From assembly GCA_951406725.2 (NCBI GenBank), contig OX597815.1:44268001-44332000 (forward strand): a DNA stretch of 64,000 nucleotides, in the 5' to 3' direction. Source of the DNA: Octopus vulgaris (taxonomy: Eukaryota). The notes beneath the pieces are model-generated. The model saw nothing but the letters and a program-made list of their open reading frames with translations. It was not told the DNA's origin and searched no databases. The position numbers were made by a program, and so were the translations under genes. Shown here one piece after another: positions 986-30,942 of this stretch (the first letter of the stretch is position 1; each line of letters opens with the position of its first letter).

Positions 986-1565
986 GGCCTTCTCTTCATT
1001 CTCATCACTTTCCCTCCTTTTTTACCTCACTCTGTCCTTTTCCTTGTTTTCTCTCTTTCTTGTCCCTTCCTAATTCTTCAATCCCTCTACCCCCTACCTC
1101 TCTCCTCTCCTTCCACGTGACCGATGTTCGGCCAAGCCTGATCTTTCTTTCTTTGTTTCACTACCATCCGTGTAGCATCTCTTATATTCCTTCCTATGAT
1201 GCTCATCCTCTATGCTCCTGCCGTAAGGCTTCACTTCCACACAAGCCAGCTTAATTTAATTCGTCCTTAGTCGAAAGACACCTGTTGTTAATGTCCTGTT
1301 GTTTGTATTTGTAATTGTGTACAATTTCACCGTTTATTATTTTTTTTCGTCCTTGTTTTCGTATACATTTGCTAGCTTTCTGCCAAAGAATATAGTGCTC
1401 TTAGCTTAGATTTTCTTGTGGCCTGCTTGATTAGAGCAGTCTCGAGAGTAACCGGCCGAAACTGCAAAGATGGTCTGGTGCTCGACTGAAGAAACTGTAA
1501 AGATGATCTGGTGCTCGACTGAAGATTGAAAGCTCCGAATGATCCGTCCTTGTTTTACCTGTCCT
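985..1565 (+). mobile_element. Penelope-like/retrozyme-like non-coding repeat, family P1
   Basis: Homologous to 54600-54900 (minus), e.g. shared gccagcttaatttaattcgtccttagtcgaaagacacctgttgtt. Also related to 30438-30580 and 33765-33880. Carries a hammerhead-like motif. Penelope-like assignment is inference. Confidence 0.6.
1436..1530 (+). ncRNA. Reverse-order hammerhead-like ribozyme motif (GUC site) with a 33-nt internal duplication
   Basis: GCAGU-C-UCGAG (1436-1446), GAAA-CUGC (1458-1465), CUCGA-CUGAAGA (1481-1492, repeated 1514-1525). Stem II is weak. Confidence 0.6.
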
Positions 1566-19144: not shown

Positions 19145-19780
19145 AAAAGTAAATAAATGGCACAACGAAGCACCGATATTTACTGGAAAATAGCGAACGT
19201 AATAAATACGACGCTAATGTATAGCTTCACTGCGTATGTACTAGTAAAGATGCGTGTGTGCAACAAACATGAAAAAAATTGTCTTACCTCTAGGAAGAAC
19301 ATCTGAAAAATGAAAAACCTAGAAACGGATAATGCAGTAAACAGTAAACGGCATGAAATACGAAAACAAATCAGTTGAATACACAAACAACGAGAGAAAC
19401 AAATGGAAAACAGGACAAGTAACATAAAGAACGACCCTTCATCACTTGTCAGTTGTCTTTCTACTCCTCATTTCGAGCATCGAACGACAACATGAGTCTT
19501 CGAAGGCAGTTGCTCCAGCAAATACCAAAATAAAACTTGGGATTTATGGAGGGTCAAAGTTGGGAACAAAAACGACTCTCCACGTTTATTTTCGTTCGGT
19601 TTCCTTGTATGTCTCCACTGTCCTGTTTTTGTTCCCAACATTGACCTTCCATAAATCCCAAATTTTATTTTGGTATTTGTGGGAGCAACTGCCTTCGAAG
19701 ACTCATATTGTCGTTCGATGCTCGAAATGAGGAGTAGAAAGCCACTGATAACTGATGAAGGGTAATTTTTTATGTTACTT
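19145..19780. mobile_element. Penelope-like repeat with inverted terminal duplication
   Basis: Inverted arms of about 157 bp at 19417-19573 and 19625-19780, each carrying a hammerhead-like motif. Confidence 0.7.
19702..19764 (+). ncRNA. Reverse-order hammerhead-like ribozyme motif (AUA site), intact core
   Basis: CUCAU-A-UUGUCG / UGCUC-GAAA-UGAG / UGAUAA-CUGAUGA-A-GGGUA. All three helices pair (5, 6 and 5 bp including G-U). Confidence 0.7.
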
Positions 19781-19899
19781 TGATTGGCAACCATCCAGGT
19801 ATCTACTGATATGCACTTTTCAAGGATTTCAAGAATGCTTTGTCTAACGGCTGCATCTTCTGGGTGCAATGAGGTGGCAGAGTTGTGAGTTCAATCTCA

Positions 19900-20370
19900 T
19901 TTGAACGAGCGTATTAAACAGCTGCAAGGGTTTTGTGGCTATGATGACCATCCAGTATTATTATGTGCTGTTCTGCTTGTGACAGTTTCGCTATGGCAGT
20001 GAAGTGTCTCACCCATTTTAGGAAGCTTTCTTCGTCAGTCCAGCTGCTTTTAGTGAAATGACTAGTTGCCCCAGCTGGTGCGTTATTCATAAGAGCATCT
20101 ACCATACGTTTCCTAGGAAATATGAACATCAGAGGTGTGTAAGCTCCAGCGGCATTTGTAGTACATATGACAGTTACTGTCTTTCCTTTTTTTCGACTGG
20201 TCATTTTACCTTTGGTGGTAATATTTGCAGGCTTCTGAGCATTGGATACTCCTGTCTCGTTCATGTTCCAGACTTGCATAGGACCATAGTGGTTGCTGCT
20301 TAGCACGCAATTGGAGGCATCGAAAAACTTCTCAACTTGATGTTTGTTAAATCCAGCTGCCCTGGAGTTG
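19900..20370 (-). mobile_element. pogo/Tigger-type (DDE_1, CENP-B-like) transposase fragment
   Basis: RAAGFNK..V..FF, VWNMNETG, TVTVICTTNAAG..P.MFIFPRKR, F.KW..HF and IILDGHHSH motifs. Confidence 0.9.
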
Positions 20371-20664
20371 ATGTGATCGATTCATCACCTAGCATTATTA
20401 AATGGCATTTGGAGACAACGAACATGCAGAATCGTTATCATACCGGACAAAATGCTTAGCGACATTTCTTCGGACTTTTCATCCTGTATTCAAAAGCTGC
20501 TGAGTTTGGCATTGACTTTCAATCTTTCAGGGTTGACAAAATACGTAATAGTTGAACACTGGGTTCGATGTAACCGATTCATCCCCTATCCCAAAATTGC
20601 TGCCCTTGTGGCAAAATTTTACACCATTATTATTAGTATTATTATATTTTAAAAATAAATATAT

Positions 20665-23155: not shown

Positions 23156-23684
23156 TAAGTTCCTTTGCTTCGTCAGAAGAATGCGTATGAAATAGATAAT
23201 CAATGCGGTTGTTGCTTAGTCCCTTCTCAGCAGAAAAAAATATTAGTAGTCATATGAAGGTATCTATCTATTCTACATGTGTCCTTTATTTAATGTAAGA
23301 TATTAGAGCAGTGGCTTTCAGACTAGCAAATACCAAACCCAACCCTAACTAAACATTAAAGAACTTTCTGAGCTCCTCCTATACATTGGTGTCAAATTTT
23401 GGCAAAAGCCAGCAAGTTCGGGGCAAGGGGTAAATCTATTGCCTCGATCCCCAGAGCTCAATTTGATCAACCCCGAAAGGATGAAAAACAAAATCGACCT
23501 TGACGGAATTTGAATTCAGAATGTAAAGACAGACGAAATGCAACTAAGCATTTTGTCTGACGTGTTTGCCCCACTTATATATTAATATTAAGGATGAAAA
23601 AGAGAGAAAAAGAAACAGATTTTCATCGATATAATTCTTCTTACGTTACTGTGGAGTTAGATATGCTAAAAAAGTTTTAAACCG

Positions 23685-23808
23685 GGAATATTCCTTGTAT
23701 TGTTTGTCTTGTACTCTGTTTTTTCGTTGTTAAAAAAAGTCCGTTTCCTAGTTTGTTTTTATGTTTTCGTTTCTCGTTGTGTTCTACATTTAATTGTGGT
23801 GTCCTGTA

Positions 23809-23863
<55 letters not shown>

Positions 23864-24115
23864 GTATATATGCATGTATATATATACATGTAGATGTAGG
23901 TACGTACATATATGTATGTATGCATATATTTTATTTATTAAATTATTATATGACTGAGCGCCCTCGCGTCGTTTGGTTTCTTTTCTCCAAGTAAGTTTTT
24001 AGATATAATTATGACGCGAACTCTGTAACCCTTTGCTTGACCTTTCCTTCCTTCTTTCCTGTCTGTCTTCCTCTTTGCCTGTGTCTCTCCTTATTTTTCA
24101 CTCTTTCTTGTTTCC

Positions 24116-24161
<46 letters not shown>

Positions 24162-24651
24162 TCCTCATCTCTCTCACTGCTGAATCGACTACCAACTTCC
24201 TTTCGTTCGCAGCTTTCTACAAGTCAACAACGACTTTTTCTTGCGCTCCGAATTTTTCCGTCGTCTAGGCTTAAAAAAAGCCCTCAATGTTGGTTTCATT
24301 GTCCTGTTTTTATTCTTTATGCGTACTGTATTTTAATTTGTATTGCTTTTACGTCCTGTTCTTGTCACATTTTTTTCTTTCCATTTTTTTCTTTCCTTGT
24401 TTTACCCCTCTGCAGAAGAATTTTATTTAATTATTTTGCAGGAAGGATTGGTACGACAGATCGTGTTCTGTCCTTACCTTCGAAACACGCATTGAGTCGA
24501 ACCAGGGACAGCTGATGAAGGGGAATATTTCTTGTATTGTTTGTCTTGTACTCTGTTTTTTCGTTGTTAAAATAAGTCCGTTTCCTAGTTTGTTTTTATA
24601 TTTTCGTTTCTCGTTGTGTTCTACGTTTAATTGGGGTGTCCTGTACTCATA

Positions 24652-24718
<67 letters not shown>

Positions 24719-24780
24719 GTAGATGTAGGTACGTACATATATGTATGTATGCATATATTTTATTTATTAAATTATATATA
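23685..24780 (+). mobile_element. Penelope-like/retrozyme-like element with about 265-bp terminal direct repeats
   Basis: 23685-23950 repeats at 24521-24780 (period about 835 bp). Non-coding, with a hammerhead-like motif at the junction. Confidence 0.75.
24462..24523 (+). ncRNA. Reverse-order hammerhead-like ribozyme motif (GUU site), intact core
   Basis: CGUGU-U-CUGUCCUU / CUUC-GAAA-CACG / AGGGACAG-CUGAUGA-A-GGGG. Stem III 5 bp, stem I 8 bp, stem II 4 bp. Confidence 0.72.
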
Positions 24781-30437: not shown

Positions 30438-30440
<3 letters not shown>

Positions 30441-30578
30441 AGATTAATCAGCCGAAATTACTACGATGATCCGGTTCTTGACTGAAGACTGAGGGCTTCG
30501 AATGTCCTGTCTGTGTTTGTTGTATCGTCTTCCTAGTTTTTATGCGTTCTTGTCTCAGTTTGTATTTTTCTACATATC

Positions 30579-30692: not shown

Positions 30693-30942
30693 ATCTATAC
30701 AATATGTTACATTACTCGGTAGTCAAGATAAAACTCTGAGTTTCAGATGCCGAAGTGGAAATCCACAACCATTCTCTTCGGTTATCTGGCTATTTGAAAA
30801 CGTTATGAAAAAAAGGGTATTTTTTTCATAACGTTTTCAAATACCCAGATAACCGAAGAGATGGTGTTGTGGATTTCCACTTCGGCATCTGAAACTCAGA
30901 GTTTTATCTTGACTACCGAGTAATGTAACATATTGTATAGAT
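30693..30942. repeat. Near-perfect 250-bp palindrome with a 5-nt loop
   Basis: Arms 30693-30814 and 30820-30942; loop gggta. Confidence 0.92.

Follow-up and report, generated by a model that had tools for sequence, protein, structure and literature searches.

The closest described systems are the non-circularly permuted hammerheads. The block order cleavage site, GAAA, CUGANGA is that of the non-circular type SGC, which has been shown to cleave and which, in the accessible part of Eckert et al. 2023 (PMC10085705), is known from environmental sequence only; the same text reports that a helix equivalent to the one called P4 below is required in this type. The insertions described in the hammerhead core are of 1-2 nt only in the available text of Perreault 2011 (PMC3088659), and one extra base between positions 9 and 10.1 is given as typical of the hammerheads of Penelope-like elements (PLEs) in the corresponding part of Cervera and de la Pena 2014 (PMC4209133). 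The accessible part of a 2026 retrozyme preprint covers type I only (bioRxiv 10.64898/2026.07.22.740005), that of a 2026 ribozyme survey mentions neither Naiad nor Penelope, and, as far as the available text of Craig et al. 2021 goes (PMC8557442), no canonical hammerhead is reported in Naiad PLEs. Outside subscription journals and bioRxiv supplements, we found no report of the opened wiring described here, none of permuted hammerheads in Naiads, and no paper with an active core opened between A9 and G10.1.

The window studied here is a 64,000-nt stretch of the Octopus vulgaris genome (contig OX597815.1, positions 44,268,001 to 44,332,000). It holds a fold-back pair whose arms, 19417-19573 and 19625-19780, are 92% identical over 157 nt. 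The original prediction placed a hammerhead core in reversed, non-circular order at 19702-19764 of the right arm. Its letters are indeed in place, and a strict descriptor matches at 19707 and 24467, while its opened version matches 1441 too. As the strict descriptor found nothing in 60 shuffles of the window, such hammerhead-like matches exceed chance. The right arm passes every part of the hammerhead letter test (CUGANGA, GAAA, U16.1-A15.1, non-G at 17), and its stems I and III both pair. The left arm, read on the minus strand, fails two of them, with the G at the cleavage position and the GUGAUGA that had been predicted. G at position 17 impairs hammerhead cutting. We consider it probable that a ~700-nt repeat gave rise to the locus as a truncated, folded-back copy. 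The 3' part of this repeat would form a conserved six-helix fold that has every hammerhead core letter and is predicted to cut itself after 19707, and the repeat was likely mobilised by Naiads. The features are as follows.

1375-1533, plus strand: family-E copy in the same opened layout, without a downstream stem II partner; 3' block duplicated locally; predicted cut after 1441.
19340-19573, minus strand: main 5'-truncated family-A piece, its putative ribozyme with G17 and C3G; equals positions 461-694 of the L014 unit.
19439-19445, minus strand: left-arm core GUGAUGA (C3G), as read from the letters (19445-39).
19491, minus strand: left-arm position 17, a G, as read from the letters.
19571-19780, plus strand: inverted piece of the family-A repeat; equals unit positions 407-617 and shares 3 nt with the left piece where the two join.
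19643-19647, plus strand: helix IV upstream strand, pairing with 19759-63.
19649-19682, plus strand: hairpin V (-12.5 kcal), flanked by helix IV and G10.1.
19683-19687, plus strand: predicted stem II 5' strand GAGCA, its first G being G10.1; pairs with UGCUC 19719-23.
19689-19694, plus strand: I-II helix (P4), 5' strand; the stretch it would pair with, near 19738-44, has decayed in the right arm.
19702-19713, plus strand: block S, with stem III strand CUCAU (19702-06), A17 at 19707 (predicted cut 3' of A17) and stem I strand UUGUCG (19708-13).
19719-19731, plus strand: block G, UGCUC-GAAA-UGAG, with stem II 3' strand, GAAA (19724-27) and stem III strand.
19746-19758, plus strand: stem I 5' strand UGAUAA (19746-51) and CUGAUGA (19752-58); two G-U pairs in the right arm, the family majority being CGACAA.
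19759-19763, plus strand: helix IV downstream strand AGGGU; the stem II strand of the original prediction begins one base later.
19774-20378, minus strand: DDE_1 transposase remnant, a neighbour outside the element that abuts the right arm.
24405-24523, plus strand: family-B copy in the six-helix layout; stem II GAAGG/CCUUC; predicted cut after 24467.

Covariation gives the strand order, 5' to 3', as helix IV, hairpin V, stem II 5' strand, P4, stem III, site, stem I, stem II 3' strand, GAAA, stem III, P4, stem I, CUGANGA and helix IV. In an alignment of 38 copies, hand-chosen across families A, B, D and relatives and themselves related, so that cells are not independent events, 91% of the cells of the six-helix model are paired and 19 of the 30 pairs show two-sided changes, against 41-47% paired in slid controls. 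Stems I, II and III, with stem II drawn to the upstream strand, are paired in 96%, 94% and 95% of cells with two-sided changes, abut the core and keep G10.1-C11.1. P4, the fourth helix, is formed by the 5' flank and the linker from block G to block C and joins the far ends of stems I and II; it is 76% paired in the alignment, a value owed partly to misaligned family B. Helix IV, between the strand after A9 and a far-upstream strand, has at least 5 Watson-Crick pairs in 70 of 99 copies (24% in shuffles), and its two-sided change is slight (1 of 5 pairs). In support of this model, 10 of the 11 majorities of multi-copy subfamilies fit the order site-GAAA-CUGANGA, with stems I and III paired by differing sequences, and all 10 have a P4 of 5-10 bp, one of them in a doubtful register. 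As had been predicted, stem III AUGAG/CUCAU is replaced by a different, compensated pair at 24462, and the hammerhead core covaries between families. We hold it very likely that the fold is real and conserved.

Known models and other block orders were also compared with these sequences. No hammerhead model was among the 150 of 279 Rfam matches listed for the window, nor did loci L012, L085 and L110 give any match at the gathering score, which is expected for a permuted strand order; the miRNA matches among those listed for the window were discarded as microsatellite-driven. The type-I order C, G, S gave no fit in the window or in loci L001-L040, and type-GCS fits were rejected because they rest on G-U pairs. 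Another abundant repeat, in which TTTCCCCAAGACACC precedes CUGAUGA, fits the search patterns but was set aside as well: it is a canonical type-I PLE hammerhead whose upstream GAAA is there by chance, and 0 of 13 fit SGC. Note that loci L094, L086 and L087 belong to a family of canonical type-I PLE hammerheads that is very abundant, lies beside (AAC)n tracts and has an additional base following A9.

The repeat at the fold-back locus, family A, is a ~700-nt non-coding unit that is seen in tandem at locus L014. Copies were sought in the 2.8-Gb genome to which the window belongs, where the arm query gave 2255 first-look candidates, 40 of them scored. Three core patterns matched 824, 7044 and 12113 times in this genome, against 3, 250 and 7 matches of the reversed controls. 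Counted by hand, about 83, 63 and 45 of the first 100 listed matches per pattern were of the opened-fold kind, the remainder being mostly of the canonical type-I family, which was removed before all counts; extrapolation from these hand counts gives about 10,000 genome copies of the opened-fold kind. First looks gave 2716 genome candidates for family B (at 24.4 kb of the window) and 2574 for family E (at 1.4 kb). The family-B element of the window (23684-23921 and 23940-24760, plus strand) carries upstream a partial tandem of its own 3' end, and its GTAAGT near 23991 and pyrimidine-tract AG at 24440-41 look like a retained intron; the intron-like motifs of the family-A unit at L014 resemble these. 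At L012 (1880-2830), a family-A and a family-B element lie tail to tail on one TA tract.

According to the accessible part of Craig et al. 2021 (PMC8557442), targeting of (TA)n, partial tandems, an inverted 5'-truncated piece and a tail are hallmarks of Penelope-type insertions. Among 70 family-A copies for which a downstream anchor was the sole criterion, 58 terminate at a TA tract, 15 continue into the start of a next unit (the tail) and 16 loci have inverted pieces; with the tandem at L014, family A thus shows the insertion features of Naiads and other PLEs. It has no RT motif upstream, and its common sequence ends within ~430 nt of GAAA, so that the ORF expected of a Naiad, with an N-terminal GIY-YIG and an RT with the DKA motif, is not part of it. 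As far as the available text on Naiads shows (PMC8557442), family A is alike in TA targeting, tandems, inverted piece and tail, and differs in having no ORF. The link of family A to Naiads is indirect, since the sequence upstream of it, as of families B and D, yielded no ORF.

For family C, the link rests on the DNA tail and on protein motifs. In the Craig supplement, Naiad_Obim and Naiad_Ovul, the latter flagged 'HHR_half_core', have 3' ends that family C matches. In 19 of the 30 best loci of the RT C-terminus linked to family C, a whole or partial fold lies downstream on the same strand, and the upstream frames of these loci show DKA, GIPMG and RYIDD motifs. A minority of the published Naiad tails was covered, read by eye, and the fold was seen in them from corals to octopus: the opened form appears in the tails of Naiad_Amil, Aacu, Anas, Naiad-2_Movir, Plae and three more entries, and plain type CSG with a I-II helix in those of the nematode Naiads Nbra-1, -2, -3 and Hcon, with type CSG also in two further supplement entries. 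Four of the 14 displayed tail ends (Movir-1, Dcar and two Pristionchus) gave no clear fit, one more had no core in the displayed stretch, and the tail preceding Naiad_Adux is ambiguous. In 14 of 23 full family-C copies (L085, L088 and others), a kink-turn-like loop (UGA facing NNN-GA) lies between stem III and P4; in families A and D the corresponding feature is tandem GA with 3-nt loops on both strands.

From the shared fold and the shared target, we infer that family A is likely mobilised by Naiad PLEs. It is possible, if unlikely, that the ribozyme is as described and that family A was moved instead by a Neptune-type PLE or a HERO-like non-LTR element. Consistent with this, family A has no ORF, no homology to family C was detected outside the fold, and the genome's Neptune-like GIY-YIG element ends at TA tracts too. 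Against it, the fold lies on the coding strand at the 3' end in none of 30 Neptune-like loci, compared with 19 of 30 Naiad-RT loci. For this reason the GIY-YIG element beside L007, considered as a partner, was set aside as a chance neighbour. As an observation in its own right, this Neptune-like PLE (CxxC and GIY-YIG; downstream part of L007, minus strand, and L041-L070) is abundant, and its 3' end gave no hammerhead fit with the descriptor used here.

Which strand forms stem II decides how the core is wired. The original prediction had all three helices pairing within 19702-19764; stems I and III bear this out, and stem II, drawn there as GGGUA/UGCUC, does not. This pairing contains two G-U pairs and is worth -2.5 kcal, against -5.4 kcal for the upstream GAGCA. 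Across the copies, the upstream strand makes at least 5 Watson-Crick pairs in 71 of 99 (1.6% in shuffles) and the strand after A9 at least 3 in only 6 of 99. The upstream stem II is built from distinct sequences in different families (GAGCA/UGCUC, GAAGG/CCUUC, GACAC/GUGUC, GGCCGG/CCGGCC), while the downstream one is weak in every subfamily majority. Thus the partner of stem II probably lies upstream, and the AGGG after CUGAUGA would close an extra helix beside a hairpin. With stem II most likely formed in this way, the 19702-19764 stretch omits stem II, helix IV, hairpin V and the I-II helix.

A plain type SGC, in which the GG after CUGAUGA-A forms stem II and the upstream strand with helix IV makes an 'off' fold that blocks cutting, seems to us improbable. 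In families A, B and D its downstream helix can be drawn with 78% pairing and covaries to some degree (one pair is either C-G or G-U), one alignment column covaries with both the upstream and the downstream partner, and the single extra base that it places between A9 and G10.1 is of the kind given as typical of PLE hammerheads in the accessible text of PMC4209133. However, that pairing comes largely from G-U, a slid control does better (86% at -3), and the invariant G-C and G-U columns were imposed by the search patterns. The 6-of-99 count given above weighs against it as well, as do the copies that dispense with this helix. Among 25 family-E copies, 14 are without an intact core; of the 11 with one, 9 form at least 4 bp with the upstream stem II strand, and the downstream stem II is missing in all 11. 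Read by eye in the Craig supplement, coral, cubozoan and acanthocephalan Naiad tails also do without the downstream stem II, and some Naiad tails have no G after A9 and yet a perfect upstream partner.

With stem II upstream, the predicted core is opened between A9 and G10.1 and is a circular permutant of the SGC/CSG class. As occurs in type SGC (HRIMA-1 and variants, in the accessible part of PMC10085705), it combines the block order S, G, C with a short stem I-stem II linker, a helix that links the far ends of stems I and II, and a double pseudoknot. In contrast to type SGC, the stem II 5' strand and the I-II helix strand stand at the 5' end in octopus. Block C, which that text assumes to be uninterruptible (PMC10085705), is here interrupted after A9, with helix IV and hairpin V lying between it and G10.1, so no stem II strand follows 1-2 nt after CUGANGA. 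Cleavage has been shown for type SGC (PMC10085705) and is predicted for the octopus fold. Type CSG, represented in the available part of PMC10085705 by two metagenomic sequences, has an equal circular strand order; its block C is whole, and that of the octopus form is not. The minimal type-I hammerheads that occur in PLEs as well as in non-LTR retrozymes, as far as the accessible parts of PMC4209133 and bioRxiv 10.64898/2026.07.22.740005 describe them, are comparable in where the hammerhead lies, namely in the terminal repeats of PLEs and in tandem units that are short and non-autonomous, and they tolerate extra sequence between positions 9 and 10.1, like the octopus fold. Unlike it, they have a short palindromic stem III and act as dimers, whereas the octopus fold has a full stem III and reversed order. 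In summary, the reversed block order is already in print, and the predicted opening between A9 and G10.1 is what makes this a new hammerhead variant.

Two kinds of evidence bear on cutting. At 10 non-CpG core positions of 35 family-A copies, chosen by the downstream anchor only, divergence is 3.4% against 11% elsewhere; this is no more than suggestive of activity, the copies being related. The other is where copies begin, mapped against full copies only to avoid shared microsatellites. Of 138 pattern-selected copies, 34 have their 5' end in the ~15 nt that separate the predicted site from GAAA on its 3' side, compared with 7 of the 104 remaining copies in the next 15 nt upstream of it (p=0.0002). 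In the unbiased 70-copy set, the 5' ends per 16 nt are 5/69, 9/64 and 13/55, and then 3/42 beyond the site, so that 13/55 differs from the upstream 3/42 at p=0.05 and from the 9/64 further 3' at p=0.24. The maximum of the pile-up lies 5-10 nt inside the predicted site, not at it, and some of the ends in it are internal deletions. Several copies begin at the predicted site right after a TA tract (L107, L189, L219 and window 30438). The last is the family-E-like copy at 30438-30495 (plus strand), which starts with the stem I strand. The drop in 5' ends at the predicted site fits a cut template; the rise before the site and the inner peak at 5-10 nt also fit RT stalling in structure.

The fold might instead be a non-catalytic signal, a site for the RT or endonuclease or for a kink-turn protein, in which the hammerhead letters are structural and the short copies come from RT stalling. 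Truncation is also raised further 3' within the fold, and the kink-turn-like loop of the 14 of 23 family-C copies would suit such a role. As far as the accessible text of PMC11167929 goes, the PLE hammerhead of Anolis needed protein and was dispensable for insertion in vitro, with C3G abolishing cutting. We give this explanation only a slim chance: the catalytic letters, U16.1-A15.1, the non-G at 17 and G10.1-C11.1 are all kept across unrelated sequences, and the 5' ends fall sharply just 5' of the predicted site, where several copies start after a TA tract. We judge it reasonably likely that the fold cuts in its opened form.

In the proposed mechanism, as the 0-2 nt junctions suggest, helix IV would be stacked on V so that A9 is kept next to G10.1, while P4 would tie stems I and II together as in type SGC. 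The fold could be completed only once its last strands were transcribed. Judging from where copies start, the predicted cut would define the 5' end that the RNA template has when transcripts are tandem. More speculatively, the cleavage products would be kept joined by stems II and III, P4 and helix IV, which could favour re-ligation or the formation of circles. Taken across the family, we lean towards the reading that Naiads and their short parasites all carry non-circularly permuted hammerheads, type CSG in nematodes and, in cnidarians, acanthocephalans and cephalopods, an opened form clamped by helices IV and V that lies outside the six published permutations. Their cutting in vivo would define where the template ends, and they may join the RNA up again as circles.

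At the locus itself, the inverted repeat comes from a single truncated element that underwent a 5' inversion and is not a terminal repeat, so that of the Penelope-type inverted duplication originally proposed, the Penelope-type insertion with its inverted piece stands and the terminal repeat does not. Six departures from the family majority are common to both arms, and each arm has another 6 that are private to it, which indicates that both were copied from one RNA; in our model they decayed afterwards, and a read-through RNA would fold them into a long duplex. In support of this, folding of the whole stretch as plus-strand RNA predicts one long arm-to-arm duplex (-247 kcal). The right arm had been called intact. 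Its private changes, however, are all in helix strands: the I-II helix (P4) is lost and stem I and helix IV are weakened. Those of the left arm include position 17 and C3. The supposed contrast between an intact and a knocked-out arm needs no special explanation. With the core intact in 22 and broken in 13 of 35 unselected family-A copies, roughly every second pair (47%) should be mixed, and the asymmetry is unremarkable. Although 2 of 6 private changes affect the core in the left arm and 0 of 6 in the right, it is very improbable that the one-intact, one-broken arrangement was selected, for instance so that one hairpin strand alone cuts: broken cores (13/35) and inverted pieces (16/70) are routine, the right arm has no P4, whose equivalent is required in type SGC (accessible text of PMC10085705), and the plus-strand RNA is predicted to fold into the arm-to-arm duplex. 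The locus thus likely reflects ordinary decay of one family copy, and neither arm is likely to be a good ribozyme now. No target duplication was readable, the DDE_1 remnant continuing on one side only; this remnant (19774-20378, minus strand) has only one other genome match (L327, 83%). Elsewhere in the window, a near-perfect inverted repeat of ~94 nt (30771-30864) carries sub-threshold miRNA matches.

If the opened fold is the ribozyme that we propose, non-circularly permuted ribozymes would go from rare environmental RNAs to some ten thousand copies in one animal genome. It would also explain the reported absence of hammerheads from Naiads, which has served as an argument that hammerheads may be mere parasites of such elements. 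The hammerhead core would tolerate a break of the backbone in a block assumed to be indivisible, which would bear on search descriptors and on ribozyme design. Finally, the role of a ribozyme in Penelope-type transposition would become testable, because the ends of the copies already mark the predicted cut.
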